Notes under the pieces: generated by a model
The model's database searches: none
The model's input: the letters and a program-made list of their open reading frames with translations, nothing else
Told to the model about the DNA's origin: nothing
Shown: positions 7,974 through 52,188 of the stretch, piece after piece
Position numbering within the stretch: position 1 is the first letter of the stretch
How the letters are laid out: each line of letters opens with the position of its first letter
Source of the DNA: Candidatus Spechtbacteria bacterium SB0662_bin_43
GTDB taxonomy: Bacteria; Patescibacteriota; Minisyncoccia; Spechtbacterales; 2-12-FULL-38-22
Reading direction: 5' to 3'
Assembly: GCA_009839835.1 (NCBI GenBank)
Contig: VXOY01000010.1
Span: forward strand, 4,025-68,024
Length of the DNA stretch: 64,000 nt
Program-made: the position numbers and the translations under genes

Positions 7974-8508
7974 GAGTGAAGAAGAAAGCGGTATGTTAAT
8001 GGAGGGTACGTATGAAAATCCCACACTTTAATTCAGTGTGGGATTGATAGGAGGTGTGTCTTGGAAGTGAAAGTACGCAGTAGAGGAATCGTTGAGTTTT
8101 TGTACTTGTAGCGTGCCACAGATGATGCACTCCAAGATGAGTTTTGCAATGTCGTAAAACGTAAAGGTGCGACATGTGCACCGTATGCAGGACGTTATTC
8201 CTTCTACTCCTCTGAACATCACTTCTCCTTTCTGGTATCAGTACACTGTATTTATACACTATATTCGATGTAGTATCAATTGTATTGATGGTATGTAGGC
8301 GAAGGGGCGAGTACTGTTTTCAACAATCACATCAATCAATAGTACAAGAGTAGATTGTTCGTATGCAAGACATCAAGGATGTGCAGTGCTGTGTGTGGCA
8401 GGGTTCTTGACTTTATATATTAGTGTGTTATTCTATAGATAGTTCTTGAACACAAGACCTCTGCATGTGTTGTGAATACAGGGGTTTTCAAAAGAAAGGA
8501 AGTTTCTG

Positions 8509-9300
8509 ATGGCTACGAAGGACTATCCTGCATTGAGCAGGGAGCCTTTGCGGGTTCATCACAGGGCTGTCGTGGGATTGAGCGATAAGAACCTACGCGG
8601 ACAGGAGATGATGGACGAGTTCCTCATAGGATCGTTCTGGAGGAGAATCTTTGATGGAGTCAAGGAACCATTGTTTGAGTGCTATGATGAGTACATGACG
8701 TTGGATCTTGTTGTGCTCACGCCACAAGAGGTTGGATTGCACACAGACAATAGGATTTCTTTGTCATCTTTCTTCTCGCACGTTGTGCGCACTTTTCCTG
8801 AATTAGAGCTCGTAAAGCCAGAAGTTGCTTTTCGGGTACAAAGAGACTACGATCTGGAGATTGGGGAGGCACACTATTTTGCGATTCCTCAACCAGGCGT
8901 CATCATGCGTGACTACGATCTTGGTACGCGGGAAATAGGGTTTGGTCTTTCGCACGGAGGCCTACGACTGATGGGTGTGCCGCACTTGCAAAAAGAGAAC
9001 GCCGTGTATCGGATTCTACAACCTGTTCCTCGTTACGACATCCATTGGACTAGACACGATGTCAGGTGGGTGTTTGCGTTGAAGGCGCAGGTTGATATGG
9101 GTGCGACGCCCACTGATGAGAATATTCGCGAGTCCTCTCACCAGAGCAGTGGCAATACTGGTGTTTCGTATGACGCACGGAGTCATTACCAAACAGCGCA
9201 GAATGGTGATGGGTTAATCTTTGATGACAAGTCAACGGAAGAACAGATGGACAGGGATCTTGACGACGCACTGTCATTTCTGAAGAGAGTCCACCGATGA
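8509..9300 (+). CDS. Hypothetical protein, GC-rich (~55%) gene with GAAAGGAAG SD-like leader
   Basis: Clean 263-aa ORF. Composition clearly higher GC than flanks. No recognisable motifs. Confidence 0.55.
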   Translation: MATKDYPALSREPLRVHHRAVVGLSDKNLRGQEMMDEFLIGSFWRRIFDGVKEPLFECYDEYMTLDLVVLTPQEVGLHTDNRISLSSFFSHVVRTFPELELVKPEVAFRVQRDYDLEIGEAHYFAIPQPGVIMRDYDLGTREIGFGLSHGGLRLMGVPHLQKENAVYRILQPVPRYDIHWTRHDVRWVFALKAQVDMGATPTDENIRESSHQSSGNTGVSYDARSHYQTAQNGDGLIFDDKSTEEQMDRDLDDALSFLKRVHR

Positions 9301-9468
9301 CTCCCTGATACGGCAGAATACACATTCTGCCGTTTTTCTTTTTTAATATGCGAATGTAAGTCTGGTTGCAAGGATACAGGTGTTGACAAAATCATATATA
9401 TATATAATCATAGTGGTTCCAGTCATACGATTGGGATAGAGACTGTGCTCAAGAAAGGAGCGTAGGAA

Positions 9469-10590
9469 ATGACAGGTTCGAGCGTGATACGGAGCCAGGG
9501 ACCCAAGCGCTACAATCACTTCACGGGCAGGAGCGTTTTCATCTCCACTGTGCGTGGCGGCCGACCCGACAAGAAAAAGACCAGTGTACAACATCCTGTG
9601 GTGCAACGCGATCCATTCGTTGACCCCCAGGCGTTCGGGAACGAAGATCCAGTGTTTCAGTACACCGATCCTGAAACCCAGGACTGGCTGGTGCAGATCA
9701 TTCCAAACCTGTGGCCCATTCTTTCTCTTGAACGAAAGGAACGATTCGACAGAGATGCGATTATTGGAGAAGGATTTCACGAGGTGGTGATCACAAAAGA
9801 TCCCACCTACTCCTTCGCGGACTTCTCGCAGCAATACACAGAGCTTGTGTTGAAGGCTCTTGCTATGCGGTCAAACGCGATCCTTCGTGAGTGCCCGAGC
9901 ATTAAGGAGATTTCTATCTTCCAGTGCTATGGGTTACAGGCAGGAGGCTCTCAACCCCACCCTCATCTACAGATCTTCGCTCACAACGATGTTTCACCAG
10001 AGGTGAAACATCGCGAGGAGATGATGCTTCTCTTCTGGAAGAAGCACAACATCAATGTGATTGATGCTGTGATACAGGATGCAGAAGAGGATCCAAGTCT
10101 GGTTGTCTACCGCAACAGCAGTTACGTGGTCGTTTGTTCGCACGCACCCTCAGCCGAATACGAGGTTCAGATTCTGCCAACCTACACAGAAAAGACCGCC
10201 TACACGAACCGAGGCTTGAACGCGGAAATGTTGGACGATCAGAGGAGAAGGGATCTTGCTGAGGCACTGAATGTCGCGACTCGCGCACTCAAAATCGCCC
10301 TGAATGATCCTCCGTACAACATCTTGGTTCGTTCCCTTACGAAGGGTATGGCGAACATGATTATTCCTACGGACCAGCATTTTCTCGGATGGTACATTGA
10401 CATTCGTCCCACCTACGGCTACCAGCCGTTTGGGCTCCAGCCGTTACGGGGAGACGATACAGTGACCGTCGAGCCCGAGTACGCAGCAAACGATTTGCGC
10501 CTTGCCTTAAAGCATCCTGATTTCCCAAACAGGGAACAGATGTCGTGGCAAGACCAGTACGCCAACACGATCGCGATGCTGGTTCAGTAG
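9469..10590 (+). CDS. HIT-superfamily GalT-branch nucleotidyltransferase/phosphorylase-like protein (GalT/Apa2-like)
   Basis: GGSQPHPHLQIFA matches the GalT H-x-H-x-Q active-site block (cf. SNPHPHGQIWA). Upstream VQIIPNLWP resembles the (V/I)PNK(F/Y)P block. GC-rich, GAAAGGAG leader. Confidence 0.65.
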   Translation: MTGSSVIRSQGPKRYNHFTGRSVFISTVRGGRPDKKKTSVQHPVVQRDPFVDPQAFGNEDPVFQYTDPETQDWLVQIIPNLWPILSLERKERFDRDAIIGEGFHEVVITKDPTYSFADFSQQYTELVLKALAMRSNAILRECPSIKEISIFQCYGLQAGGSQPHPHLQIFAHNDVSPEVKHREEMMLLFWKKHNINVIDAVIQDAEEDPSLVVYRNSSYVVVCSHAPSAEYEVQILPTYTEKTAYTNRGLNAEMLDDQRRRDLAEALNVATRALKIALNDPPYNILVRSLTKGMANMIIPTDQHFLGWYIDIRPTYGYQPFGLQPLRGDDTVTVEPEYAANDLRLALKHPDFPNREQMSWQDQYANTIAMLVQ

Positions 10591-12870: not shown

Positions 12871-15408
12871 ATGGCAAATTCCAAAGAAGCACAATCACGG
12901 ATAAAGATTAACAAGTTTTTAGAAGACGCAGGGTGGCGGTTTTTTGATACAGAAAAAGGTGAGGCAAACATTCGGCTTGAAGCCAGTGTAAAAATAACCC
13001 AACAAGATATTGATGAAATGGGAGAGGATTTTGAGAATACCCAAAGAGGATTTGTAGATTATTTATTGTTGGATGATAAGGGATTTCCTTTTGTTGTCTT
13101 GGAAGCAAAGAGAGAAGGTAAAAATCCATTAGATGGTAAAGAACAAGCACGTAGGTACGCCCAGTCGCAGAATGCCAGGTTTGTTTTACTATCAAATGGC
13201 AATACGCATTACTTTTGGGATTTGGAAAGCGGTAACCCAGAAGTTATTATAGAGTTTCCAAAACAAGAATCATTGTTGCATCGTTCAGGGTTTCAGCCAG
13301 ATAACCAACGGCTATCCAGTGAAAGCGTTAAAGAGGATTATATTGCTTTGACGCAAAATCCAAACTATAAAGAGGATCCTCGTTATCGGGACAAAAGCAC
13401 AAGGGAAGAATATCTCTCTCAGGAGGACTTACGAATTTTACGTCCCTATCAACTCAGAGCAATTCATGCATTACAAAAGAGTGCTGGTGAAGGTAGTACC
13501 AGGTTTCTCTTTGAGATGGCAACAGGTACAGGGAAAACTCTTGTGGCAGGTGCGGTTATAAAACTTTTTTTGAGAACAGGCAACGCGAAACGAATTTTGT
13601 TTTTGGTTGATAGAGTAGAATTAAAAAATCAGGCGTATGATAATTTTAATACTTACTTAAAGAACGATTGCACATCTGTTATTTATAAAAACAACAGAGA
13701 CGACTGGCAGAAGGCAGAGATAGTCATCTCAACTGTTCAGAGTCTTGCTTCTCAAGATAAGTATAAGAAGTTTTCGCCAACTGACTTTGGCTTGGTGATT
13801 TCTGATGAGGCACACCGCTCAATTGGAGGGAGTAATGGGAATTATAGGGCAGTGTTTGAGTATTTTGTCGGATATAAGTTGGGACTCACCGCAACACCAA
13901 AAGATTACTTGAAAAATGTTGATTCACAAAAATTACCTCAAAAAGACCCTCGTGCGTGGGAACGTAGGCAGCTTTTGGATACCTATACGACTTTCGGTTG
14001 TCCAAGCGGTGAACCAACATTTCGTTACACACTAATCAGTGGTGTGAAAGATGAATATCTTATCAATCCTATTGCTGTTGATGCACGAACAGAAATAACC
14101 ACTCAGTTACTTTCAGAAAAGGGCTATGCTATTATTGCTGAGAATGATGAAGGAGAAAAAGAGGAAGGAGTGTTTTTTCATAAAGATTTTGAGAAAAAGT
14201 TTTTCTCAGATAATACTAATAAAGCATTCTGTGGGACGATTATTAAAAATGCTCTGCGAGATCCTATCAGCAGAGAAATTGGCAAGACCATTGTGTTTTG
14301 TGTTAGACAGAGCCACGCTTCTAAGATTACACAGATATTGAATCAAATGGCGGACAAAGTGTGGCCTGGCAAATACAACTCTGACTTTGCGGTACAGGTC
14401 ACATCAAATGTTCCTGATGCTCAACAAATGACGATGAATTTCGCAAACAATAATCTTACAGGACGCACCAATTTTCTCCCTGGTTATAAGTCAAGCAAGA
14501 CAAGAGTATGTGTAACAGTCGGGATGATGACAACAGGATATGACTGCAAGGATATTTTAAATCTTGCGTTGCTTCGTCCTATTTTTTCTCCAACAGACTT
14601 TGTGCAGATTAAGGGACGAGGTACCCGTAAGTTTACCTTCGGGTACAAAAATGAAGATGGGGAAGAGATAAAGAAAGAAAAAGATACATTCAAGATGTTT
14701 GATTTCTTTGCGAACTGTGAGTATTTTGAGGAAAAGTTTGATTATGATGAGGCACTCCAATTGTCAGTTGCACAGAGGAATGGCAGTAGTTTTTCTGCGG
14801 ATGATTTCAGCATCCAAAGTACGATGGACGAGGCAACTACTTATGCTCCTGATACTGTTACTCGGTACAAAGAAAAGCAGATTAGCAGTGCAGGGATGAA
14901 AGTAGATCGTAAATTATTTGAAAAAGCCAAAGAAGAAATTGGAAAGGATAAAGATATTCAAGATGCTGTTATGCAAGAACAGTGGGACAAGGCAATCAAT
15001 ATCACTGTGCATAAGTATCAAGATAAGCCTGAGCTCTATATCAATCTTGATAAACTTCGTCGTAGCGAGAGCTTAGATAGACGATTGACGTGGCGTGAGG
15101 TATTAGAGCGAGTATTTGGATTTGTTGATACCTTTCCATCAAAAGATGAAAAATTAGAGGAAGAATGCGAGAAGTTTATCTCTATTGATAAGCCCAAGAG
15201 TAAGTATGTACCATATATTAAGAATTTTATTAAGGCATACCTTACAGATGAAAGGTTTCATGCAATTATTGAAAACAGAAACTATGGAGAGCTCAATAAC
15301 TACGCGGGTTTTCCAATGTCAGATTTTAAGGCATTAGGAGAAGATTTACGCAAGAAATTACCCGAATACATAAAAGATTATATACCCATCAATCAATATA
15401 AGGAATAA
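12871..15408 (+). CDS. hsdR: Type I restriction enzyme R subunit (compact, 845 aa)
   Basis: N-terminal HsdR_N nuclease MANSKEAQSRIKINKFLEDAGWRF...DYLLLDDKGFPFVVLEAKREG. SF2 motifs EMATGTGKT (I), DEAHRS (II), LGLTATP (III), TTGYDCKD / QIKGRGTRK (V/VI). Confidence 0.85.
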   Translation: MANSKEAQSRIKINKFLEDAGWRFFDTEKGEANIRLEASVKITQQDIDEMGEDFENTQRGFVDYLLLDDKGFPFVVLEAKREGKNPLDGKEQARRYAQSQNARFVLLSNGNTHYFWDLESGNPEVIIEFPKQESLLHRSGFQPDNQRLSSESVKEDYIALTQNPNYKEDPRYRDKSTREEYLSQEDLRILRPYQLRAIHALQKSAGEGSTRFLFEMATGTGKTLVAGAVIKLFLRTGNAKRILFLVDRVELKNQAYDNFNTYLKNDCTSVIYKNNRDDWQKAEIVISTVQSLASQDKYKKFSPTDFGLVISDEAHRSIGGSNGNYRAVFEYFVGYKLGLTATPKDYLKNVDSQKLPQKDPRAWERRQLLDTYTTFGCPSGEPTFRYTLISGVKDEYLINPIAVDARTEITTQLLSEKGYAIIAENDEGEKEEGVFFHKDFEKKFFSDNTNKAFCGTIIKNALRDPISREIGKTIVFCVRQSHASKITQILNQMADKVWPGKYNSDFAVQVTSNVPDAQQMTMNFANNNLTGRTNFLPGYKSSKTRVCVTVGMMTTGYDCKDILNLALLRPIFSPTDFVQIKGRGTRKFTFGYKNEDGEEIKKEKDTFKMFDFFANCEYFEEKFDYDEALQLSVAQRNGSSFSADDFSIQSTMDEATTYAPDTVTRYKEKQISSAGMKVDRKLFEKAKEEIGKDKDIQDAVMQEQWDKAINITVHKYQDKPELYINLDKLRRSESLDRRLTWREVLERVFGFVDTFPSKDEKLEEECEKFISIDKPKSKYVPYIKNFIKAYLTDERFHAIIENRNYGELNNYAGFPMSDFKALGEDLRKKLPEYIKDYIPINQYKE

Positions 15409-15415
15409 TAAAGTT

Positions 15416-15485
15416 AGTTTACATCTCTTGACGAGATATAAACTAAATCGCATTTTAGTTTATATCTATAGGTAAGATGTAAACT
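15416..15485. promoter_or_regulatory. Nested perfect palindrome (A-B-loop-B'-A') in the hsdR / AlbA_2-gene spacer; candidate operator or RNA hairpin
   Basis: agtttacatct(15416-26) ... gatataaactaaa(15435-47) tcgca tttagtttatatc(15454-66) ... agatgtaaact(15475-85). A further gatataaacta copy at ~15558. Confidence 0.4.
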
Positions 15486-15597
15486 AAAATAAAAGATAGT
15501 TTTTGTTGACTGATGAAATCTGAGTTAGGTCGCGATTTAATGTATAGTGATAGGCGTGATATAAACTATTGTCCAAAAATATGCCATAATAAATAGC

Positions 15598-17031
15598 ATG
15601 GATGATATCGTGAATACAATTCTGAATATCCCAGAAGAGACACAAACCATTGAGTTTAAACGTTTAGCTGGCGATAAAGTTGTTCGTAAGATTTTGCAGA
15701 CTATCGTTGCTATGGCAAATACTGATGGCGGAACGATTATCTTAGGCGTTGATGACCCAGAGAAGACAGCATTGAAGGGATGTGATAGGATTTTCGGAGT
15801 TGAAGAGGATAAGGTTTTGCTTGATGAGATTTTGAAAGAGCAGTCAAAAATTAATCCACAACTTCAAGGTATTCAGTTTCGCCATATCAAGGCACAAGGT
15901 GATAAAACAATTGTTTTGATAACAGTTGAAAAATCTAAAGAATCATTAGTCTCATTGAGTAATGATGTTTTTACTCGTCTCAATAAAAGTAATAAAAAAT
16001 TAAACCCACAAGAAATTGTAAAGTGGAGTTATACCAAAGGATTTATAAAGGCGGATAAAGAATTGGTGGATGTGGATTTTGAACTTTTACAGACAAAATA
16101 TTTTGATGTCTGGTGCGGTGCAATGGGTATCTCTGGAGGAACCATCCAAAGCATTTTATCTCAGGCTGGTTTGGCAAAAAAAGGTCAGGAAGAAATCTTG
16201 CGACCAACAAGAGCAGCCGTTCTACTTTTCGCCGAACATCCTACTTACCTAATGGAAATACATTGTACTGTGCGAGTTATACAACTCCGAGGCACATTAG
16301 AACGATTTGAGACTGTTCCTAATTATGTTAGTAAGCCAAAAACTATTGGTGGTCCAATCATAGAAGTAATTCGTAATTCTCACGAGTATGTTTTGAGTTT
16401 ATTGGGGGCAGGTATAGAAATTCATTCTGGTTTTGTTAATACTTTTAAGATTCCCGAACGAGCAGTGAAAGAGGCTATTACGAATGCTGTCATACATCGT
16501 GATTACCGTATTCAAAGAGATGTTGAGATTCGTGTTTTTGAAGATAGAGTTGAGGTATTAAGTCCTGGGCTATTTACTTATAATATAACTGCGAATAATA
16601 TAGGGTTCGTGCGTGCAGATGGTGAGAGGAATGATTTGCTGGTCAAACATCTGCGAGAATTTCCTAATCCACCGAATTTAAACTTCAATGAAGGCGTTCG
16701 TGCAATGAGGGCGGAAATGGATAAGCAAAATTTATACCCTCCGATTTTTATGACATACCCTACATACCCTGACTCTGTGAACGTTATTCTCCTGAACGAA
16801 GAAAGACCGACAGAGTGGGAAAAGGTAAGACTATACCTATCAAGAAATAGGTATATTGATAATAAAACAGCAAGAAACATAACAGGGGTTGTACAAATGC
16901 ATGATATGTCACGTATGCTCAAGAGATGGACAGAGCAAGGATTTTTGGTAAAAATTGATGCCGAGTCTAAGTATTTTAAGGGTACAAAATATAAATTAGC
17001 AAATATTGATGAGATGGGTATAGAGCAGTGA
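15598..17031 (+). CDS. AlbA_2 (Schlafen-like, divergent AAA) + HATPase_c_4-like + wHTH protein embedded in the hsd operon
   Basis: N-terminal ETQTIEFKRLAGDKV...MANTDGGTIILGVDD (AlbA_2/pfam04326-like). C-terminal EAITNAVIHRDY block typical of the RecG-C-terminal-like HATPase_c_4 domain. Stop 17031 sits 10 nt before the hsdM start. Confidence 0.7.
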   Translation: MDDIVNTILNIPEETQTIEFKRLAGDKVVRKILQTIVAMANTDGGTIILGVDDPEKTALKGCDRIFGVEEDKVLLDEILKEQSKINPQLQGIQFRHIKAQGDKTIVLITVEKSKESLVSLSNDVFTRLNKSNKKLNPQEIVKWSYTKGFIKADKELVDVDFELLQTKYFDVWCGAMGISGGTIQSILSQAGLAKKGQEEILRPTRAAVLLFAEHPTYLMEIHCTVRVIQLRGTLERFETVPNYVSKPKTIGGPIIEVIRNSHEYVLSLLGAGIEIHSGFVNTFKIPERAVKEAITNAVIHRDYRIQRDVEIRVFEDRVEVLSPGLFTYNITANNIGFVRADGERNDLLVKHLREFPNPPNLNFNEGVRAMRAEMDKQNLYPPIFMTYPTYPDSVNVILLNEERPTEWEKVRLYLSRNRYIDNKTARNITGVVQMHDMSRMLKRWTEQGFLVKIDAESKYFKGTKYKLANIDEMGIEQ

Positions 17032-17040
17032 GAGTTTTAC

Positions 17041-19512
17041 TTGCAAACCCAAATGCAAGTAAAACTTAAAACCCCATTAAATAGGCAAAAAACAGCATCT
17101 TTACTTGCAAATCACTCAAAATTCACTATGTTAGATGCAGAAACAAAACGACACATTGATGCAGCAAGGCAAGTTCTTGTTGGTAAGGTGCCAGACCCAA
17201 AGGCGCAAGTAGACCAAATTACCACAGCCTTGATTTACAAGTTTATGGACGATATGGACAAAGAGTCGCAGGAGCTTGGTGGTAAGGCACAATTTTTCTC
17301 TGGGGATTTTAGTCAATATTCGTGGACGAAGATTTTAGATAGTAAATTATCTGGACAAGAGCGATTCAATTTGTATAATGAAGCAATTAAGAAGATGCCT
17401 CGCAATGAAAATATACCCCAACTTTTCAGAGATATTTTCAAAGATGCACTTCTACCATATCGCGATTCTGCAACTCTTTCACTGTTCTTGAAAGAGATTG
17501 ATAATTTTACATACGATCATAGCGAGAATCTGGGCGATGCATTTGAATATCTACTCTCTATACTTGGCTCGCAAGGGGACGCAGGTCAATTCCGCACACC
17601 TCGTCATATTATTGATTTTATTGTTGATGTTGTAGATCCAAAAAAGAATGAGACTATTTTGGATCCTGCGTGTGGAACAGCAGGCTTTCTTATATCCGCG
17701 TACAAGCATATTGTTGAAAATAATGATGGCAAGGATAATAAAACAGGAGAATTAACAGATAAAGAAACAACCTTAACACCAGACGAAAAACAGCGACTGG
17801 TCAAGAACGTTGTAGGGTATGATATTTCGCCCGATATGGTGAAGCTATCGTTGGTGAATATGTATCTTCATAAGTTTACCAGTCCGCAGATCTTTGAGTA
17901 CGATACTCTTACCAGCGAATCAAGATGGGATGATCAATTTGATGTAATCCTGGCTAATCCACCATTTATGACACCAAAAGGTGGTATTCGTCCACACAAG
18001 CGATTTTCCGTTCAAGCGAGTCGTTCCGAAGTACTTTTCGTGGATTACATTTTGGAGCATCTTAACTTAAAAGGACGTGCAGGTATTATTGTGCCTGAAG
18101 GGATTATATTCAAAGCAGATAAAGCATATAAATCACTCCGTAAGAAATTGATAGATGATGGATTGGTTGCTGTCGTGAGTTTACCTGCAGGCGTGTTTAA
18201 ACCATACTCAGGCGTAAAAACATCAGTTTTATTTTTTGATAATCAGGTTGCAAAAACAACAGATGAATTATTGTTTATAAAAATAGAAAATGATGGGTAT
18301 GAACTTGGAGACCAGAGGAGAAAAATCAAGGAGAATGATTTACCCGAAGCACTGGAAGTATTACAGCAATGGAAGCAGGGTAAGAAGAAAGAAAGCGAAC
18401 TTGCTTTATGGGTGAAGAAAGAAAAAATCGCAAAAAGCGAGGATTATAGCTTGGTAGGCGATAGATATGGAGAAGTAAAAGAAAACAAAAAGCAAAAATA
18501 TCCAATGGTGGAACTGGGAGAGGTTTGTGGTTTTCAGCGTGGCACAATGATTACGAAGAATATGACAGAAGAAGGCGATGTTCCTGTAATTGCGAGCTCT
18601 AAACGACCTTCGTACTACCACAATCAATCTAATAGACAGCCGCCTACGATTACAATATCATCATCTGGTGATGCTGGTTTTGTCAATTTTTTTGAGATTC
18701 CTATATTTGCATCTGACTGTTTTACGGTAGAACCCTTAGATAAAGATCAAATCAATATCTATTTTCTTTACTCTATACTAAAATCAAAACAAGAGTGTAT
18801 CTATAAACTGCAGAAAGGGGTAGCGCAGAAACATGTGTATCCAAAGGATATATCAACAATCAAGATTCCTCTTCCGCCACTTAAAATTCAACAACAAATC
18901 GTGGAAGAGATTGAAGTAAAGCAAAATGCCATCAATCATGCTCAAGAAATCATCAAAAATCTAGAGAGAGAGAGATTGTATTTTGGTAACGAAATTAGAA
19001 AACTAAAAAATGTAAAATGGGTTGAATTGGGTGAGGTGGTACAGACGATTGTTCCACCAAAAAAGATTAAAAAGAGAGATTTTGCACAAGTGGGAGATTA
19101 TCCAATTATAGATCAGTCACAGAGTCAGATTGCTGGGTGGAGTAGTGATGAATCTGCGGTTGTTAAAATTCAAAATCCTGTGGTAATATTTGGCGATCAC
19201 ACGTGCGCTATAAAATACGCTGATAGGCCGTTTATTCAAGGTGCTGATGGTTGTAAAATACTAGAGGTGTGTAGTAATTTGATGCCTAAATTTTTATTTT
19301 TCTATTTAAAAAATCACCCTATTCAAAAAGAAGGGTATAAGCGCAATTTCACTAGACTCAGGTTACTCAAAGTTCCTCTCCTGTCACATGAAATTCAAAA
19401 ACAACTCGTCGCAGAAGCAGAAAAAGAAGAAGCAATAATCAAAGCAAACCAAACCCTTATTAAAATAATGGAAGATAAGATTGATAAGGTTTTGCGGGAG
19501 GTAGGCAAGTAG
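17041..19512 (+). CDS. Type I R-M methyltransferase-specificity fusion (HsdM N-terminal ~480 aa + full two-TRD HsdS)
   Basis: HsdM motifs DPACGTAGFL (motif I) and ILANPPF (motif IV). S part: two TRDs, each opened by VELGEV, separated by the conserved IPLPPLKIQQQIVEEIE central repeat. Confidence 0.85.
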   Translation: MQTQMQVKLKTPLNRQKTASLLANHSKFTMLDAETKRHIDAARQVLVGKVPDPKAQVDQITTALIYKFMDDMDKESQELGGKAQFFSGDFSQYSWTKILDSKLSGQERFNLYNEAIKKMPRNENIPQLFRDIFKDALLPYRDSATLSLFLKEIDNFTYDHSENLGDAFEYLLSILGSQGDAGQFRTPRHIIDFIVDVVDPKKNETILDPACGTAGFLISAYKHIVENNDGKDNKTGELTDKETTLTPDEKQRLVKNVVGYDISPDMVKLSLVNMYLHKFTSPQIFEYDTLTSESRWDDQFDVILANPPFMTPKGGIRPHKRFSVQASRSEVLFVDYILEHLNLKGRAGIIVPEGIIFKADKAYKSLRKKLIDDGLVAVVSLPAGVFKPYSGVKTSVLFFDNQVAKTTDELLFIKIENDGYELGDQRRKIKENDLPEALEVLQQWKQGKKKESELALWVKKEKIAKSEDYSLVGDRYGEVKENKKQKYPMVELGEVCGFQRGTMITKNMTEEGDVPVIASSKRPSYYHNQSNRQPPTITISSSGDAGFVNFFEIPIFASDCFTVEPLDKDQINIYFLYSILKSKQECIYKLQKGVAQKHVYPKDISTIKIPLPPLKIQQQIVEEIEVKQNAINHAQEIIKNLERERLYFGNEIRKLKNVKWVELGEVVQTIVPPKKIKKRDFAQVGDYPIIDQSQSQIAGWSSDESAVVKIQNPVVIFGDHTCAIKYADRPFIQGADGCKILEVCSNLMPKFLFFYLKNHPIQKEGYKRNFTRLRLLKVPLLSHEIQKQLVAEAEKEEAIIKANQTLIKIMEDKIDKVLREVGK

Positions 19513-19529
19513 TGGCAGGATGATTATTT

Positions 19530-20234: not shown

Positions 20235-20362
20235 TATAATAAGTGCCAGTCATCTTATCATTAATTTAATACGTTCTTTAAAAGCGATAAATTTATTTTG
20301 CGATATAATAAGAAGATGGTGTGTTATCTAGAGACGACGAGAGATACTAAATTAGAGTCATT

Positions 20363-22249: not shown

Positions 22250-23707
<1,458 letters not shown>

Positions 23708-24144: not shown

Positions 24145-24846
24145 TTGAACGCCACGCGACAGAAAGGATCTCTGATGAAGTTCGCGGTTGTTGTTTTTCC
24201 GGGAACGTGGAGTGACTGGGATTGCGTTTACGCCTTACAAGATTTAGGTCAGACAGCAGAGCGGGTCTGGCATCAAGAGTCAGCGCTTGACGACTATGAT
24301 GGAGTCATTTTACCGGGTGGCTTCTCGTACGGCGATCACCTTCGTTGTGGCGCAATAGCAAAGTTCTCGCCAGTGATGTCCGCTGTTGAACGATTTGCCA
24401 TGACTGGCAGACCGATTCTCGGTATCTGTAATGGCTTCCAGATTCTGTGCGAGGCAGGCTTGTTGCCTGGAGCATTGCTTCGTAACGCGTCGTTGCAATT
24501 CCGCTGTCAGCCGCAGAAATTGACGGTTGAGCGATTGGATACTGGATTCACTAACCTTTGTCAGCCAAGGCAGATCGTCCAAGTTCCAATCTCGCACGGT
24601 GAAGGGCAGTATTTCGCTCCAGAATCTGTACTGGATGAGCTTGAGGAAGACGACCGTGTTCTGTTCCGCTATACAGATGGTAACCCTAATGGATCGCTCC
24701 GTGACATTGCTGGAATCATGAATTCAATGGGCAATGTACTCGGCATGATGCCGCACCCCGAACGCGCGTCTGACGAATTACTTGGCGGAACCGATGGCAA
24801 CTGCATCTGGCGATCAATAATTCAGGAGTGGGGCAGCGATGGCTGA
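24145..24846 (+). CDS. purQ: Phosphoribosylformylglycinamidine synthase I (glutaminase subunit); likely start at Met 24175
   Basis: MKFAVVVFPGT...GVILPGGFSYGD...GICNGFQIL (catalytic Cys)...HGEG...MMPHPER. GC-rich, GAAAGGAT leader. Confidence 0.85.
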   Translation: MNATRQKGSLMKFAVVVFPGTWSDWDCVYALQDLGQTAERVWHQESALDDYDGVILPGGFSYGDHLRCGAIAKFSPVMSAVERFAMTGRPILGICNGFQILCEAGLLPGALLRNASLQFRCQPQKLTVERLDTGFTNLCQPRQIVQVPISHGEGQYFAPESVLDELEEDDRVLFRYTDGNPNGSLRDIAGIMNSMGNVLGMMPHPERASDELLGGTDGNCIWRSIIQEWGSDG

Positions 24847-25631: not shown

Positions 25632-25974
25632 GATAATTGCGGGCTTTGTGTTTTAAAAACGTCAAACCCCTACCGCTTCGGGTAGGGGTTGGTTGCTGCG
25701 CTGTTGCCTGCGGGTGTTGCCGACTGTTGCGAATCCTTTTGGGAAGGCAACTGGTTTGCGTTCGCAGACGCGCGTTCTTGCTGCCTGCGACGCTTCCGCC
25801 GTTGTCGGCGTCGCATTCCTTCGCCTCCTGCTGCCATTGTGATACCTCCTTGGTTGCGAGCAGTGGTTATTCACATTATAGCATATAAATATATTTTGTC
25901 AAGTACAGGCATTGACAACGTACAGATATAGTGTGAAAATATTACTATACAATATACGATTAAGTACTTATAGT

Positions 25975-26160: not shown

Positions 26161-26721
26161 CTATGGTTTGGACGAGACGATTTTTCTCATAACAACGCTG
26201 TCTGGATGCTGCATACTGTGTCCATCTGCGATGTAGAGGTGGGGTGTTACTGCGTCCAGATATGGAGTCATTGCTTCTTGCAGGAAGTCCTTGACACTTA
26301 GCAGGTCTCTCTTCTGTTGCTGCATTTCGCAGTACCGCTTTGGAATACGGTAGCCTCCGCAGTTGGTGTGGCAGAAGAGGTATAGGTGCTGGATGTTGTG
26401 CAGTGTGCTTGCTACTTCAAGGGCATCTATTGTGGTAACCAACGCCCTTGTTGCACGGGAAATCTTTACTGCGTCTACTGTTTGCGAGTCGCGCGGATTG
26501 ATGAGGTTGGTCGTAGCGTACGCAAGAATGCCTGCTCCTCCTGGAATGCTCAGGAATGAGTCAAACGAGCCTGGGTGCTTTGCTTGGATGAACTGATGGA
26601 TCGCTGCATGGAATCGCGGGTCAATGCACGACACAACAAATGCGTCTGAACTGTGCGAGTTCATTCGTTCTCGCGCAACAGGAAGTACTGCTTCGCTCAC
26701 TATCACGTTGCGTCCTTTCAC
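26161..26721 (-). CDS. Beta-class carbonic anhydrase-like protein
   Basis: VVSCIDPRF (C-x-D-x-R) and FCHTNCGGY (H-x-x-C-G) zinc-ligand blocks. 4-nt overlap with the atpC stop. Confidence 0.6.
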   Translation of the reverse strand: MKGRNVIVSEAVLPVARERMNSHSSDAFVVSCIDPRFHAAIHQFIQAKHPGSFDSFLSIPGGAGILAYATTNLINPRDSQTVDAVKISRATRALVTTIDALEVASTLHNIQHLYLFCHTNCGGYRIPKRYCEMQQQKRDLLSVKDFLQEAMTPYLDAVTPHLYIADGHSMQHPDSVVMRKIVSSKP

Positions 26722-37219: not shown

Positions 37220-37337
37220 GTTATGTGATTAAACCAGCAATGAAAATAAGTGCAAGATTGTTTTTCTGGTGATATGGTGTATAGTAGGTAAGGTATCCGT
37301 TGTGTTCTCATGAGCACCACAAGAAAGGAGTTTTGCA

Positions 37338-37634
37338 ATGGATGTGCCCCTTCTGATGTACCTGGTCATGGTACCAGTCTCGGTGCTCGTCGTATCCTTT
37401 ATGGGATTCGCAGGGTTGTCGCTTCGGTACGAACAGCGGCACACCAAGGTCAAGGCAGCCGTGTCGTTCTTGTTGATCGGCTCGCTCACCTTTCTGGGCC
37501 CAGTTATCGGAGGAGTGGTGGACGTTGCATATCTTCCCATATTGTACATCCCCTGTATCGCAGGGTGGTGCACGATGTGTATCGCAGCATTCGCTCCTCA
37601 TCCGTACGACATCGTGCGCATGGTGTCGCGTTGA
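37338..37634 (+). CDS. Small GC-rich membrane protein (98 aa), GAAAGGAG leader
   Basis: Three hydrophobic segments; ORF ends 4 nt before a strong terminator; ~58% GC. Confidence 0.5.
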   Translation: MDVPLLMYLVMVPVSVLVVSFMGFAGLSLRYEQRHTKVKAAVSFLLIGSLTFLGPVIGGVVDVAYLPILYIPCIAGWCTMCIAAFAPHPYDIVRMVSR

Positions 37635-37638
37635 GGAC

Positions 37639-37681
37639 GGCTCCTATTGAGTACCCGCTGTACTCAATAGGAGCCTTTTTG
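37639..37681 (+). terminator. Rho-independent terminator
   Basis: ggctcctattgagtac-ccgctg-tactcaataggagcc-tttttg. Confidence 0.7.
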
Positions 37682-40075: not shown

Positions 40076-40081
40076 ACTAAT

Positions 40082-45512: not shown

Positions 45513-45541
45513 TTGACTTTTTGACAAAAGTATGCTATAAT
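45513..45541 (+). promoter_or_regulatory. Near-consensus sigma70 promoter TTGACT-17-TATAAT
   Basis: -35 45513-18, spacer 17 nt, -10 45536-41; ~95-nt leader to GTG start with GGGGAGGG SD-like. Confidence 0.55.
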
Positions 45542-45639
45542 ACACATACAGACGATGAGAGATGGGCAAGATGGTGGATGATTCTTACTCTCTCTCTCTG
45601 TATTAGTCACACTGACTGCATCACGGGGAGGGAAAAACC

Positions 45640-46359
45640 GTGAACTTCATCAAAACAGGCTTTGGGCGAGCCTTGATCGCTCTTTCCGTGGGTCTAACAG
45701 CTCTTGTCGGCGTTGTCGCCATTGCCTCGGCAGATGGCGGACAACACCACCCTTCTGGACCGCCAGACTCGTCCCAGTTCGTCTGGTTGACGCAGGACGA
45801 GTTCGAAGAGGCGTGCGACATGGAAGTTCTCGTCACCGTGCACCAGGACGATGTCTATTGGGCGCAACAGGACTACTTTGTGGGTCCTACTACCCATGTG
45901 GCAGGACGCTGGGAACCTGTGTTCTTCGCAGAAGTCGCTCCTGGGGATGATCTGTGTGCCACCGTCAGCGTTTTCGTGAATATGGAAATCAGCCTCTTGT
46001 CCGACGAGGTTCCTGGAGCACTACTGACTGGCAACGAGACCGACTGGTATAGGGCATGCTCACGTCACAGCGAGTTGTCTATCGGCTTGTCTGTTGGCAT
46101 CGCCTGCTGGGGGTACGAACTTATCTTCTTGGGTCTGTATCACGGAAATTTCCTGCATGCAGCCTACCAGGTTCGTCCGCCTGCATGGCATCGCGATCGC
46201 TCGATTACCACGTACTACGGATTCGAGTACCAAGTGGAGAGCTTCACGTTGAGCTACTTCACTGAATTCGCCCTCAGGCAGAGCGTCATCTCAGGTGTTT
46301 CGGTTCTCATCGTTGACGCACGAGACGCCATCAACGAGAGCAGCGTCACGACAAATTGA
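45640..46359 (+). CDS. GC-rich secreted hypothetical protein (GTG start)
   Basis: Signal-peptide-like LIALSVGLTALVGVVAIASA; ~56% GC; no family. Confidence 0.55.
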   Translation: MNFIKTGFGRALIALSVGLTALVGVVAIASADGGQHHPSGPPDSSQFVWLTQDEFEEACDMEVLVTVHQDDVYWAQQDYFVGPTTHVAGRWEPVFFAEVAPGDDLCATVSVFVNMEISLLSDEVPGALLTGNETDWYRACSRHSELSIGLSVGIACWGYELIFLGLYHGNFLHAAYQVRPPAWHRDRSITTYYGFEYQVESFTLSYFTEFALRQSVISGVSVLIVDARDAINESSVTTN

Positions 46360-47259: not shown

Positions 47260-47359
47260 TATACGGAGGAGGGGAAGAGGTATCCCTTGATTATAGCGCC
47301 TATTTTGTTATATAATGGGCGTGATGCGCTATGCATCAAGAGACTGAAGGGACAGAACA

Positions 47360-48019
47360 ATGAGCCAGTCTCGTAGTGCTCGTGAGACCAGGTTGCAGCA
47401 CGAGCAGCAACAAGAAGGCATCCAAGGGGAAGATGTGGAGGCGTTAAATCCACTTTCTGTCCTCGGGAGTGTGAAGATCCTTCTGGCTGGTGCTGACACC
47501 ACAATCCAGAAGGATCTGCAGAAGTTTGAGGATTTTGTACACAGAACGCAGGAAACAATCAACGAGAGTCCGTTCGCAAACAACAATCTTGTACGGTTGA
47601 TTGCGTACAAGGTGATTCTGGTCGTGTTGCACAAATACCTTGTCAACCGTTCTTTCATCAAGCCCTACAAAGGGTTTGTGGACTCGGTGTTTCGGGGTAT
47701 TTACACTTTCACGACCGTGTCGCTGGTCTCAAAAGCAACTCCGTCACTGGTTGATAGGCGTGTCCGAGAGTCGTACTACGACATTACCTACAACATCGTT
47801 CGTGTCTTCTTGAAGAAAGAGTACGACCACGACGCTGTTGTCAGTATCGTTGAGGACATTGTTCGTGAATACGAGGCACAGTGCAGCGCGCTTGAGAACG
47901 GCGAAGCGCACGAGCACGATTCCCAGCACCGTTCCACAATCCTTGCCCAGTGTATTGTGAACCGTCTGTTCACAGAATATTGGGAAACACAATTTGATGT
48001 CCGTGTTTTTCCAGGCTGA
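47360..48019 (+). CDS. GC-rich hypothetical protein
   Basis: 219-aa ORF, ~52% GC, GAAGGGA leader; no family. Confidence 0.5.
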   Translation: MSQSRSARETRLQHEQQQEGIQGEDVEALNPLSVLGSVKILLAGADTTIQKDLQKFEDFVHRTQETINESPFANNNLVRLIAYKVILVVLHKYLVNRSFIKPYKGFVDSVFRGIYTFTTVSLVSKATPSLVDRRVRESYYDITYNIVRVFLKKEYDHDAVVSIVEDIVREYEAQCSALENGEAHEHDSQHRSTILAQCIVNRLFTEYWETQFDVRVFPG

Positions 48020-48142
48020 GGTGCGTTGTTGCATTAAGGTACTTTACTTTCAATCACAAGACAGTACGCGTCATCACCTCGAACCCTATGTATAGGACTG
48101 CTCTCAGCACTCGTGGCTGGAGGAGGCATTATGCATCATCCA

Positions 48143-48171
48143 CACCCTATGTATAGGGTGTTTCTTTTTTT
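48143..48171 (+). terminator. Rho-independent terminator
   Basis: caccctat-gt-atagggtg-tttcttttttt. Confidence 0.6.
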
Positions 48172-48221: not shown

Positions 48222-48323
48222 AGAGAATACGATTTTACTTTTTTATGCCCAGCTTATGTATAAAGACAATTTCATATACAGTGGTGGTAGTTTATGCATA
48301 AAAAAGTAAAATCGTATTCTCTC
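48222..48323. repeat. Family-B long-hairpin intergenic element, copy 1 (27-bp perfect stem)
   Basis: agagaatacgattttacttttttatgc ... cccagcttatgtataaagacaatttcatatacagtggtggtagttta ... gcataaaaaagtaaaatcgtattctct. Confidence 0.65.
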
Positions 48324-49162: not shown

Positions 49163-50286
49163 TGTGTATGGTTTGGTCGTGGATACTATCTTTGAAAAAT
49201 CACGATTGGGTACTGAATGGCGCGTCTTGTGTTGTGATATGTATTGGGTTGCTGTCGCTTTTTAGTGCTGGGACTGACCAGTTCTATAAACAGATTATTT
49301 GGATTTTTTTGGGAGGCATCTTGTTTCTTATAGTGAGTTCGCTTGATTACCGCATTTTTTCTGCTCATTTCTTTCCTGCACTTGCGTTGTATCTCGTGAG
49401 TGTTTTGGGGATTGTTGCTGTTGATCTTGTTGGCATTACTGTTCGCGGGAGCGAACGGTGGATTGATACAGGACTATTTCTGATAGAACCTGTTGAACCT
49501 CTGAAAATAGCGTTGATTTTGATATTGGCAAAGTATTTCTCGGTGCGGAACAGAGAGGTGCATAAGGCAAGAAACGTCATTGTGCCCGTGATTTACTTCT
49601 TTATCCCTGCGTTTCTGGTTTTTCTACAGCCCGACCTTGGTTCGCTCATCGTTCTATTCGGTATTTGGCTTGGGATGGTTATTGTTGCAGGGACAAAAAT
49701 AAGACACTCTTTCGTCATTGTATTGGGTGGAATATCTTTGTCTGTGATAGCGTGGTTATTTTTTCTGTACGATTACCAAAAAGAGAGAATTATATCGTTT
49801 TTGAATCCCTCGCTTGATCCTCTGGGTTCAAGCTACAATGCGATTCAGTCTGTTATTACTGTTTCGTCTGGTGGTTTATGGGGCAAGGGATTAGGGCAGG
49901 GAACTCAATCTCAGTTAGGTTTTTTGCCTGAAGCAACAACCGATTTTATTTACGCAGCAATCGTGGAAGAAATGGGCATTATTGTTGGGTGTCTTATCAT
50001 TGTTCTGTTCTGTGTTATCGTGTGGAGGCTGTGTCGCATAGCGTTGCGGGCGAGGAGTAATTTTGCGCGCATTGCGGTTTTTGGAGTTGCGCTTCTGATA
50101 GCGATACAGGCTGGTTTCAATATCGGTATGGTTGTCGGAATCCTGCCTATTACTGGACTCACGCTTCCGTTGATGAGCTATGGCGGGAGTAGCATGGTAA
50201 CGATATGCGTTGCGTTGGGAATCGCACAAAGCGTGCATAGAAATTCGTACGTAGAGTACGAAAAAACTGTTATTGCGTTGGAGTAG
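49162..50286 (+). CDS. SEDS-family peptidoglycan glycosyltransferase (FtsW/RodA)
   Basis: 10-TM profile with conserved GLTLPLMSYGGSSMV C-terminal block. Confidence 0.85.
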   Translation: MCMVWSWILSLKNHDWVLNGASCVVICIGLLSLFSAGTDQFYKQIIWIFLGGILFLIVSSLDYRIFSAHFFPALALYLVSVLGIVAVDLVGITVRGSERWIDTGLFLIEPVEPLKIALILILAKYFSVRNREVHKARNVIVPVIYFFIPAFLVFLQPDLGSLIVLFGIWLGMVIVAGTKIRHSFVIVLGGISLSVIAWLFFLYDYQKERIISFLNPSLDPLGSSYNAIQSVITVSSGGLWGKGLGQGTQSQLGFLPEATTDFIYAAIVEEMGIIVGCLIIVLFCVIVWRLCRIALRARSNFARIAVFGVALLIAIQAGFNIGMVVGILPITGLTLPLMSYGGSSMVTICVALGIAQSVHRNSYVEYEKTVIALE

Positions 50287-50436
50287 GTGGTTGCCGCGTC
50301 ATTGAAGCACAGAATCAGATAACAGGGGTATTGACAAAATAGTAAAAGTATATTATAGGAAAGGTGCAGATGCGTCACTGCATTATAAAAGCGCGCAAGA
50401 AACCAGTGAGTCGGGTCAGCAAGAAAGGATACAGCA

Positions 50437-52188
50437 ATGTCCGACCAACACACTGTGAGTGGGGGGTCGCAACGACGTCGGTCGGCGTTGTTGTCTCTCC
50501 TTATGCTCTTCACTATCGCAGCACTTGGGCTCGGCGCTTTCGCCGCGTACATGGTGTTGCGGAGCGAGGAGACGCAAGAGGGTCTGCCGCCGTTGACCGT
50601 GATGGTGCAAGACCACGAAGGAGAGCCGGTCAAGCTCGCAACCGTCGCAATTGAGCCTCTGGGCTCAACCGACCGGATGGAGCTTGTTTCCAGGCAGACC
50701 GACCATCGCGGAATGGTCTTTCTGCGCCCCAACGGGTCGTGGGACCAGGACACCGTGTCGTCAATCGAGATGATCGTGGATGTCAACGACGATGGGATGT
50801 CTGAGTACTCCGCAGTTCTCACGCTTCTGGGCGAAGTGTGGGTAGCCAATAAGTCGCATCCCTGGCTGGCTATCACGACCGAGGGTCTGGTGGCTACGCT
50901 GGAGGAAGGTCTCGTGATGAGCGAGGCTGAGGGTGACGATTCAAGTGCTACCAACGACCAGCTCATTGTGGCAGAGGAAGTCACAACAGAAGAGACCGTA
51001 GCCGTTGCAACAACGCAGCGGTCAGGCTCGCGACAACCTCAGTCACAGCAGCCCGCACAACCAGAGACTGTTGCAGCGCAGCAAGAGCGGCAATTCACAT
51101 TCCCAGTGGTTCAGACACTGAGTGGCGTGACCGTGTCGTTCAACTGTGGTGACACTGGGGTGTCGGCAACGCTCGAGTCGTTCGAAGTCCGGCTCAGTGT
51201 CGCGGAGGATGGTCGCATCGTTGCGATTATCACCGTTATTGAGAGCGAGGTCAATCCAGACCTCGTAGGTGAGTCGTTCGTCTTTGATCTCGAGGAGAAC
51301 GGGTTTGAAAGCTCGATTCGAGTTGACGACTACTCACTCTCCGATCTTCGTTCCCACACCTCGTCAATGATCCGAGAGGTCGGCAAAGCCGAACTCGAGA
51401 ATCGGCGAACAGCGATTCTCGAAGCGAACGATTTCCGGTGTTTCTATGGCAGAGCGACTGTGGAGCGCGCAGTTGAGCACTCATGCCCGGGTGAGCTTGG
51501 TGGAACGATTTCCACCACTCCCGTGGTTGTTACTATCAACCGCGACACCATCGAAAACACTCCGGTGATTACCGATGGTGGTACGGCTGGTACGTACCCC
51601 TTGAGTGCCATCACGGTTTTGGGCGATCGCGCTACGGGCCAACAGGACGCAGACAACTTTGCCTCTGCTATCGCGGATCAGGTGGCGCAACATCGCTACA
51701 ACATCGCGCTTGCGAGAGTGAAGGCGCAGTGTCTCACTGACCAGGGCAGCGAAGATGTCGTTGGGCAGGGTGACGACACCCTGCAGGAGGACGACATGCT
51801 TGAGGAGGCCGAAGACGACCTCTTAGAGGCCGACGAGGACACCTCTTCTTCAAGCCCAGGGTCTGGCGCTGGAGAGCCGTTGCCTATCATGGCATCAATT
51901 CAGCGAGTCCAGATGTACGTCACTCTGTCTGATGGCACCAGGGTAGATATGGAACCGTTCGAGGCGGTGGTCGTGATCGACCCCGACCTCATTGTGACGG
52001 CAGCCATTGACAACGCACTGGTCCTGGACATCGTGAGTTACGGGCTTCCTGAGTCGGTGAACGCAAGCCAGGCAACGCAGCGGTTCGCGTTCCTGATGCT
52101 CAACACCTTGATTGCTGTTGAGCGACAACAGCGAGCCGAGGCGTACGCCAGTCTGCATGGCATTACGGACTACACAGTGCCTAAGTAG
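50437..52188 (+). CDS. GC-rich (~58%) membrane-anchored acidic hypothetical protein
   Basis: LLSLLMLFTIAALGLGAFAAYMVL anchor; D/E-rich stretches; AGAAAGGAT leader. Confidence 0.55.
   Translation: MSDQHTVSGGSQRRRSALLSLLMLFTIAALGLGAFAAYMVLRSEETQEGLPPLTVMVQDHEGEPVKLATVAIEPLGSTDRMELVSRQTDHRGMVFLRPNGSWDQDTVSSIEMIVDVNDDGMSEYSAVLTLLGEVWVANKSHPWLAITTEGLVATLEEGLVMSEAEGDDSSATNDQLIVAEEVTTEETVAVATTQRSGSRQPQSQQPAQPETVAAQQERQFTFPVVQTLSGVTVSFNCGDTGVSATLESFEVRLSVAEDGRIVAIITVIESEVNPDLVGESFVFDLEENGFESSIRVDDYSLSDLRSHTSSMIREVGKAELENRRTAILEANDFRCFYGRATVERAVEHSCPGELGGTISTTPVVVTINRDTIENTPVITDGGTAGTYPLSAITVLGDRATGQQDADNFASAIADQVAQHRYNIALARVKAQCLTDQGSEDVVGQGDDTLQEDDMLEEAEDDLLEADEDTSSSSPGSGAGEPLPIMASIQRVQMYVTLSDGTRVDMEPFEAVVVIDPDLIVTAAIDNALVLDIVSYGLPESVNASQATQRFAFLMLNTLIAVERQQRAEAYASLHGITDYTVPK

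Follow-up and report, generated by a model that had tools for sequence, protein, structure and literature searches.

How do genes that carry Shine-Dalgarno (SD) boxes start translation in a bacterium whose 16S rRNA has lost the sequence that such boxes pair with? The question is raised by a 64-kb stretch of DNA (the window; contig VXOY01000010.1, positions 4,025 to 68,024) from the metagenome-assembled genome (MAG) of Candidatus Spechtbacteria bacterium SB0662_bin_43, a bacterium of the candidate phyla radiation (CPR) which we take to be a member of the Parcubacteria group. Ten genes of the window, here called class II, have a AGAAAGGA(G) or GGAGG box 4-8 nt before the start codon, and the 16S rRNA gene in their midst has no CCUCC at its 3' end. 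A first-pass annotation had described two classes of genes, GC-rich ones with SD-like leaders and SD-less core genes, and had seen in the former a foreign cohort that kept its own translation signals. We find that both classes are present and that the anti-SD is missing, while the boxes do not seem to have been carried in by donors. The reading that we put first, though at a little less than an even chance, is that they are native SD boxes of leadered accessory genes whose partner was lost and which were probably orphaned recently.

Two classes of translation start

For each gene the region from -20 to -4 before the start was scored by its duplex energy against the canonical tail CACCUCCUUUCU. 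The energies are bimodal. The seven genes for which the first-pass annotation had claimed an SD-like box all lie at -9 to -14 kcal/mol. On reading the sequence we found three more class II genes, 8219(-), 25837(-) and 26706(-), and the ten boxes taken together have duplex energies of -9 to -14 kcal/mol with the canonical CPR tail and lie 4-8 nt from the start. Nearly all of the other genes are at or below the background energy of the window, in agreement with the earlier statement that the core genes have no SD; core genes confirmed by Pfam are the atp operon, bS16, NusB, RNase III, TrmD, GAPDH, RpiB and Rpe, along with a split transketolase, class II FBA, Fur, FtsW and VIT1. The exception is 2504, with an uncertain GTG start, which reaches -11.3 kcal/mol through G.U pairing of the G-run ggggtggtggg; Pfam suggests that the true start of this gene is further downstream. 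The GC content of the window varies from 33 to 57% in 1-kb steps, and GC content at third codon positions (GC3), calculated gene by gene, also separates the two classes, being 0.51-0.69 in the SD genes against 0.30-0.52 in the other 47 (Mann-Whitney p = 7.6e-6). Class II, to which ten genes of the window and one or more close to it belong, makes up about 17% of genes.

A chance origin of the box was considered and rejected. The motif GAAAGGA is not enriched in total (13 occurrences in the window, 10.3 expected), yet 7 of the 13 sit 5-8 nt upstream of the start of an open reading frame (ORF) of at least 63 aa, a placement far beyond chance. The exact AGAAAGGA occurs 8 times in 128 kb (both strands), and 6 of these lie 5-8 nt before a class II start. 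The class II genes are listed below; the sister strain mentioned there and later is a distinct strain known from a long-read assembly of another sample.

8219-8028 (unit 8028..8233), minus strand: 63-aa CxxC...CxxC protein; box AGAAAGGAG at 8233-8225, then 5 nt and ATG; GC3 0.51; hairpin after the stop codon; no Pfam match
8509-9300 (unit 8407..9333), plus strand: 263-aa orphan; box AGAAAGGAAG at 8493-8502; GC3 0.53; promoter-like site 8407-8434; terminator 9310-9333; no Pfam match
9469-10590 (unit 9383..10590), plus strand: 373-aa protein, distantly GalT/HIT-like; box AGAAAGGAG at 9452-9460 (AGAAGGGAG in the sister strain); GC3 0.61; promoter-like site 9383-9411
24175-24846 (unit 24161..24846), plus strand: purQ; box AGAAAGGA at 24161-24168; GC3 0.52
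25837-25670 (unit 25665..25902), minus strand: 55-aa Arg-rich peptide; box AAGGAGG at 25851-25845, then 7 nt; GC3 0.60; promoter TTGACA-16-TATAAT (12/12) at 25902-25875; terminator 25690-25665
26706-26161 (unit 26161..26719), minus strand: weak Pro_CA_2-like match; GAAAGGA at 26719-26713, then 6 nt and GTG start; GC3 0.54; directly after atpC
37338-37634 (unit 37322..37675), plus strand: 98-aa membrane protein; box AGAAAGGAG at 37322-37330; GC3 0.69; terminator 37639-37675
45640-46359 (unit 45513..46359), plus strand: 239-aa protein with a signal-peptide-like N-terminus and GTG start; box GGGGAGGG at 45625-45632; GC3 0.63; promoter TTGACT-17-TATAAT at 45513-45541
47360-48019 (unit 47287..48161), plus strand: 219-aa orphan; box GAAGGGA at 47346-47352; GC3 0.59; promoter-like site 47287-47316; terminator-like site 48142-48161
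50437-52188 (unit 50311..52229), plus strand: 583-aa acidic protein with an N-terminal membrane anchor; box AGAAAGGA at 50422-50429; GC3 0.66; conserved promoter TTGACAAAATAGTAAAAGTATATTATAG from about 50311; terminator 52200-52229

Most of these genes have a leader with a sigma-70-like promoter 35-85 nt upstream (all but 26706(-), which follows atpC), and most also end in an intrinsic terminator (9310, 25690, 37639, 48142, 52200). Their start regions are more strongly folded than those of the other genes, here called class I, the median folding energies being -11.5 and -5.9 kcal/mol (p = 2e-4). At the Rfam gathering threshold the window holds only the 16S rRNA and one tRNA, and no known RNA element was found in the leaders of class II. 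A solid Pfam domain is limited to purQ; the other products are acidic orphans, membrane or signal-bearing proteins and small zinc-ribbon-like peptides. The earlier description of these proteins as mostly acidic thus holds, while secreted or membrane character could be recognised by eye in three or four only. At 37338 the real gene is the 98-aa membrane ORF and not the 145-aa ORF given by gene finders and public annotations. The same kind of gene was met outside the window, in 8.4 kb of right flank: L177:17718-17906 encodes a 62-aa CxxC protein, preceded by AGAAAGGGGG and 7 nt, with a GC3 of 0.63, and its ten neighbours have no SD box, GC3 values of 0.27-0.44 and, in 8 of 10 cases, T at -1. Across other CPR loci the link between SD box and high GC3 is not significant (p = 0.09, with crude ORF calls). 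At one CPR locus with the tail AACAACUCCUUUCU (L165:1597-3805, minus strand) the sole gene with an SD box (AAGAAAGGGAGGG) has a GC3 of 0.69 and its neighbours 0.38-0.54.

Class I genes have a start architecture of their own, with no SD box and weak folding. T is present at -1 in 34 of 47 class I genes (72%) and in none of the 8 class II genes scored (Fisher p = 1.2e-4); all ATGs of the window have it in 26.5%. On dividing the class I genes by position, operon-internal genes (18 of 25) and the others (16 of 21) are alike in this. In 10 genes, none of class II, a -10 box with at least 5 of 6 matches has its end 5-8 nt upstream of the ATG, against about 0.9 per offset elsewhere, which suggests leaderless mRNAs for these genes as far as promoter position can tell. 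Within operons, class I starts lie 2-10 nt past the preceding stop codon. Two examples are the following.

40047-40084, plus strand: start region of fur (ATG 40082), with T at -1 and a TTGCAA-17-TATAAT whose end lies 6 nt upstream of the ATG, a leaderless arrangement
26718-32938, minus strand: atp operon, with T at -1 and no SD box

The gaps in the atp operon are 2-6 nt between most genes (atpE-atpF through atpD-atpC). The architecture is not peculiar to this genome. In 81 other CPR loci with a canonical tail, T is found at -1 in 66% of 326 ORFs, and SD boxes in 8% against a background of 3.8%; locus L176 is similar. Since CPR bacteria with a canonical tail also have the T at -1 and few SD boxes, independence from SD would be older than the loss of the tail, and SD-independent initiation looks general in these CPR. 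The preference for T right before the start codon is strong and widespread in CPR (background 21-27% of all ATGs), and at -2 a G is often found.

Two low-GC defence islands (GC3 0.27-0.39) are also present, one at 12871-22081 and the other just right of the window at L177:11297-17585. The first holds hsd/restriction-modification genes and AAA ATPases and is absent in the sister strain, which has a Fic gene there instead; the second holds RhuM, ThsB-TIR and an AAA ATPase. Both have native T(-1) starts and no SD box.

The 16S rRNA gene and its 3' tail

The features concerned are the 16S rRNA gene, its tail and a hairpin in the trailer behind it.

22246-23718, plus strand: 16S rRNA gene (Rfam RF00177, 1424 bits, model positions 1-1533)
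23705-23718, plus strand: 16S 3' tail AGAACAUUUUUUUG in place of GGAUCACCUCCUUU (cmscan alignment)
23725-23764, plus strand: trailer hairpin, pyrimidine tract UUUCUUUUCUCU paired with AGAGGAAAAUGAA (fold -15.6 kcal/mol)

The gene is not linked to any 23S gene. Its helix 45 is intact and is followed by ...GGAU-AGAACAUUUUUUUG, where cmscan sets the model GGAUcACCUCCUUu against AGAACAUUUUUUUG. All four C of CCUCC are replaced by U, giving UUUUU, so that there is no canonical anti-SD, as had been claimed. An intron or insertion that moved the canonical anti-SD downstream can be discarded: no GATCACCTCCTT-like sequence with 2 or fewer mismatches was found downstream of or near the gene, trailer included. 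Mis-assembly of the 3' end was the other concern. The same stretch is present in sponge metagenome assemblies (ENA ERZ23491722 scaffold_473 and Logan SRR9841444, with exact protein matches), and the junction is the same in the ENA short-read scaffold, the Logan contig and the long-read contig; because the long-read assembly is of a different strain from another sample and has the identical tail, mis-assembly is excluded.

The passages of Tsurumaki 2022 (RNA 28:1041; PMC9297842) drawn on here report the anti-SD motif in only 48% of Parcubacteria and hold that SD helices should not form there. The window 16S, having no CCTCCT at its 3' end, belongs with the anti-SD-less Parcubacteria defined in this way, and the loss is already published for the group and is not new in itself. 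The other trait that goes with this group is a co-occurring loss of ribosomal protein uL1, and the DNA covered here (window and flanks) does not take in the uL1 locus. To place it, other tails were collected by two scans. A genome scan (one genome per species, with a 25-mer of helix 45 as query) gave 120 CPR loci with the identical helix 45, about 100 of which continue as GGATCACCTCCTTT or GGATCACCTCCTT; the rest are mostly near-variants (AACAACTCCTTTCT, AACATTTCCTTTT, CACCTCATTT) or tails cut at a contig end. A metagenome scan with the query GGAT(A/G)GAACA gave 44 further loci, and these form a graded series (UCUCCUUUU, UUUCCUUUU, AUAUCCUAC, with the variant CUCCUUUU) along with outright losses in L131, L145 and L146. 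The window 16S is at most 77.5% identical to the 120 loci of the genome scan and about 80% to partial metagenome matches, and by these identities is to be taken as a long branch. As the scans gave only 16S sequences of up to about 80% identity over long alignments, the loss of the tail cannot be dated from them.

The tails found elsewhere bear on what the boxes are. AGAAAGGAG complements CUCCUUUCU, the 3'-most part of the CPR tail, and CUCCUUUCU is the tail of nearly all other CPR 16S. AGAAAGGAG would also fit intermediate tails such as the AACAACUCCUUUCU of other CPR. The boxes centre on AGAAAGGA with no preference for a following GG, whereas the SD boxes of CPR genes with canonical tails centre on GGAGG. 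Because it is the exact complement of ...CUCCUUUCU-3', the box would be a true SD element of the lineage's own ancestral type rather than a donor-carried one.

An intact CCUCCUUUCU tail could be that of a second 16S gene, in which case two kinds of ribosomes would exist and class II would be read by those with the intact tail. The energies of -9 to -14 kcal/mol against a canonical tail agree with this, and our view is limited to 72 kb of the genome. Yet CPR genomes as a rule have a single rRNA gene set, and the 16S in view is full length and high-scoring, with the same tail in two strains. We therefore see only a very faint chance of a second gene.

A partner may also be looked for in the visible 16S itself. 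One may suppose that the box still serves to bind ribosomes and is read by an anti-SD that has been displaced or has degenerated and is kept for leadered accessory genes, the candidates being the U7 run of the tail (A-U and G.U pairs) or, if the mature 16S is longer, the UCUUUUCUCU about 24 nt after helix 45. The sequence UCUUUUCU at 23728-23735, 24 nt past helix 45, has the potential to pair with the box, and does so with all box variants at -6.2 to -8.9 kcal/mol. Also, the pyrimidine/purine hairpin resembles the covarying anti-SD/trailer hairpin of other CPR, and the boxes are sharp, kept in a related locus and apparently created anew in purQ (see below). The set of ribosome biogenesis factors in CPR is about half as large as usual (PMC12641178), which could change the trimming of the 3' end. 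A helix between leader and trailer, from which the mature 3' end could be placed, was looked for, and no clean one was found. Against a displaced partner, the trailer hairpin is no stabler than shuffled sequence (z-score -0.99). The genome's own tail pairs with the boxes at -1.3 to -2.5 kcal/mol only, through A-U and G.U pairs with U7. Also, the conserved GG of the box speaks for a CC in the partner, which neither tract has. We regard a displaced or degenerate partner of this kind as rather unlikely. The more general proposition, that a CCUCC-less bacterium still selects an SD-like box on leadered, GC-rich accessory genes and reads it by a non-canonical reader, is somewhat unlikely in our view; the reader may be an extended 16S tail with the displaced UCUUUUCUCU, pairing between the U-run and purines, or a protein.

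In 159 other CPR 16S tails (L003-L166) the anti-SD forms a duplex with the bases at the start of the trailer (CUCCUU/AGGGAG), and the trailer partner covaries with altered anti-SD sequences (UUUCC/GGGAA, CCUC..GAGG, AUCC/GGGAU). This covariation indicates a conserved hairpin, predicted to sequester the anti-SD in other CPR.

Origin of the boxes

If the genes had been taken from GC-rich, SD-using donors (e.g. sponge Chloroflexi), the boxes could be functionless relics in the course of being erased. Searches for donors and homologues covered purQ, 50437, 9469 and 26161 among class II. The PurQ protein has 80-83% identity to PurQ proteins of Chloroflexi, whose genes lie on contigs of 2-6 Mb, and this clearly points to acquisition of purQ from Chloroflexi. 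Several of these Chloroflexi accessions are in the same number series as the proteins of this MAG and would belong to the same sponge MAG submission. Homology with Chloroflexi purQ sets in about 20 nt upstream of the ATG and reaches as far as what is left of the purL start codon. Synonymous sites are saturated (proportion of synonymous differences, pS, 0.86), and GC3 is 0.52 against 0.75-0.76 in the donor clade, a fall from about 0.76 of the kind expected under drift to host composition. For purQ, then, both the foreign origin and the drift in composition that had been proposed are borne out. The box is another matter. The purQ leader shares its ancestry with that of the Chloroflexi gene, and four donor-clade relatives have AGATAGCA, CGATACCA or AGATAGGC opposite the window AGAAAGGA. 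In full, the donor-clade leaders read GACAGATAGCATC (twice), GACCGATACCATC and CTCAGATAGGCTG, and the window reads GACAGAAAGGATC; it has two differences from all four, which are exactly those that create AGAAAGGA. On this comparison the box seems to have been gained after arrival and not to be the donor's.

It may be noted that purQ (24175-24870) stands alone, with no purL or purS nearby and the purL start-codon remnant after its stop. It is under purifying selection between strains (ratio of nonsynonymous to synonymous substitution rates, dN/dS, 0.12); since it is still so constrained, it may have been repurposed as a glutaminase.

The history of 50437 is different. Its family has three members among 5.8 billion proteins, all from close relatives. 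The orthologue at one locus (L170, SRR22586457) has a protein identity of 56% (BLASTP) or 60% (own alignment), with a synonymous divergence (dS) of 1.28 and dN/dS of 0.25, and has the same upstream neighbour, so that synteny is conserved. The promoter matches at 27 of 28 positions and GAAAGG at 6 of 6 with equal spacing, while the remaining leader is 45% identical. GC3 is 0.64 in L170 and 0.66 in 50437. Drift towards the host GC3 of about 0.42 would not leave about 0.65 in two lineages at such a distance, and therefore 50437 is not a recent arrival; by this comparison the cassette is one of long vertical inheritance and stable composition, and the proposed drift to host values fails here. For 9469 there are three database matches, including one distant homologue, which has native composition and T(-1) and belongs to another CPR genome, and for 26161 just 36 weak matches among 1.8 billion cluster representatives. 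The families of 50437, 9469 and 26161 are too small to tell their donors, and these three give no backing to the notion of a foreign cohort (few, close-relative, CPR or weak matches).

The relic explanation has in its favour the origin and composition of purQ and the fact that class II genes are mostly orphans of atypical composition. It is contradicted by the donor-clade purQ leaders, which have no box at the homologous site, and by the synteny, promoter, box and unchanged GC3 of 50437 over a dS of about 1.3. Boxes centred on AGAAAGGA are also not of the GGAGG type of SD-using CPR genes, and the two low-GC defence islands, one of them missing from the sister strain, have no SD boxes at all. 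Further, the -35 context (gta)TTGACA of class II is common to the promoter-like sites of class I genes 25025, 12871 and atpB, which, with the purQ leaders, speaks against the idea that the genes kept the native signals of donors. We find the relic explanation quite improbable. That the box was not carried in by donors follows for purQ and 50437 from the comparisons above, and would by extension hold for the rest.

A further possibility, which the first-pass annotation had named as its alternative, is that AGAAAGGA is a site for a protein or small RNA (e.g. a CsrA-like GGA binder or ribosomal protein S1) that marks an accessory, surface-related regulon, the likeness to SD being incidental or secondary. 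Six genes have one 8-mer in common, always equally far from the start; it is kept in L170 and gained in purQ, and the members are alike in being orphan, acidic, membrane or small zinc-ribbon-like proteins. On the other hand, four members have GGAGG- or GGGA-type boxes, which degenerate base pairing fits better than a protein site, and an SD box would have exactly this position and spacing; the window has no candidate binder, and the second GGA site usually needed by CsrA is absent. A regulon of this kind is highly improbable.

Strain comparisons and neighbouring elements

Raised divergence between strains was tried as a trait of class II and rejected, as it is only local (the 3' part of 9469 beside the island breakpoint, and the centre of 50437). 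In 9469 the C-terminal two-thirds (9701-10500) are 63-72% identical to the sister strain and the flanks 96-99%; the centre of 50437 (51000-51900) is 75-93% identical to the copy in another sample (L171), with flanks of 96-100%. Strain divergence over 22087-34846, measured against L173, is a mosaic: purQ and the atp operon differ at about 14 positions per kb, whereas only 0-2 differences per kb are seen in the 16S gene, in the 25025 gene and in the segment 25586-26706. Such a pattern suggests recombination between strains.

A hairpin element of about 100 nt ('family B') is present in three copies, at 48222-48322, 52275-52391 and 53226-53309, and these do follow 47360, 50437 and VIT1, as the first-pass annotation had it. 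Its arms are ...TTTACTTTTTTATGC and GCATAAAAAAGTAAA... with a loop of 45-47 nt; it has no Rfam match at gathering threshold, and the copy behind 50437 is also present in L171. ARAGORN predicts a 93-nt tRNA-Ile(GAT) at 34285-34377 inside a NUDIX gene, probably a false positive because Rfam does not find it.

Proposed interpretation

Taken together, two start-site architectures would run in one genome. Class I would be the housekeeping majority in the CPR-typical, SD-independent mode, with U before AUG and an AU-rich, weakly folded start that lies either 5-8 nt after a -10 box (leaderless) or 2-10 nt past the previous stop (coupling). Class II would consist of accessory, mostly orphan, GC-rich and self-contained units with a leader and a AGAAAGGA(G) box 4-8 nt from the start. 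The partner of this box would have been lost from the visible 16S either through C-to-U decay or through one small deletion, and this would be tolerable because class I never needed it. One small deletion fusing AGAACA to the U-rich spacer could remove the anti-SD in a single step; the loss could therefore be recent and the boxes merely lagging, and our best guess is that they lost their partner a short time ago. Translation of class II mRNAs would at present begin without a full SD helix, with possible help from the unpaired purine tract and from no more than a weak A-U and G.U pairing to the U-run of the tail. It is this orphaning of native boxes that we hold tentatively and place slightly under an even chance.

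Several points weigh against it. If the tail arose from C-to-U changes in four or five separate events, the loss is old, and ten sharp boxes (six of them exactly AGAAAGGA) would then need ongoing selection and a reader. The cause of the stable class II GC3 (about 0.65) is left unaccounted for. Box conservation in L170 is silent on function without an anti-SD, as the 16S tail of that organism may be a canonical one. Also, start codons were predicted from DNA, and the sample is narrow, being the window and about 8 kb of right flank from one genome.

Significance and comparison with known systems

The loss of the anti-SD is on record in Parcubacteria, while the fate of SD-dependent genes afterwards is not. 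The locus amounts to a natural experiment, with a defined set of SD-led genes, a datable import in purQ and a visible 16S unable to pair with them. If the boxes are still selected, there would be an unrecognised way of reading them, and core and accessory genes would use two initiation channels; if they are orphaned, the moment after the loss would be captured, and the SD-dependent genes would be the accessory, leadered and GC-rich ones. On the practical side, gene finders mis-call starts here (e.g. 37338, 9469, atpC), and the T(-1) rule may sharpen start-codon prediction across CPR. The transfer of purQ points to a close partnership between this CPR bacterium and sponge Chloroflexi.

In Bacteroidia initiation is SD-independent, CCUCC is retained but sequestered by ribosomal proteins, and rpsU keeps a strong SD box for autoregulation. 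The likeness is that most genes are SD-less with unstructured, A/U-rich starts and a few true SD boxes are kept; the difference is that here the CCUCC sequence no longer exists, and that SD boxes are found on about 17% of genes, which are accessory without exception and include no ribosomal ones. Mycobacterium, Deinococcus and haloarchaea, whose genomes have many leaderless genes, keep the anti-SD and have SD boxes on internal or leadered genes. They share with the window the -10 box 5-8 nt before the ATG and the SD-less first gene of a transcription unit, but here operon-internal genes are also SD-less, with U at -1 instead. Extended codon-anticodon pairing at initiation places U(-1) opposite A37 of the initiator tRNA, and U at -1 in 72% of native starts here, operon-internal ones included, and in 66% in other CPR loci would fit such pairing; in leaderless genes the T(-1) may instead come from a pyrimidine preference before the transcription start. 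The class II units also resemble phage 'morons' or autonomous accessory cassettes in having promoter, ORF and terminator with odd composition between core genes, but they have no phage or mobile-element context, and at least one of them (50437) would be long vertically inherited. The closest likeness is with the Parcubacteria of Tsurumaki 2022 (PMC9297842), whose 16S 3' end is without CCUCCU. In the passages of that paper drawn on here, SD-retaining genes, two classes of starts and T(-1) are not described, whereas in the present locus a discrete and conserved SD class stands beside the loss.

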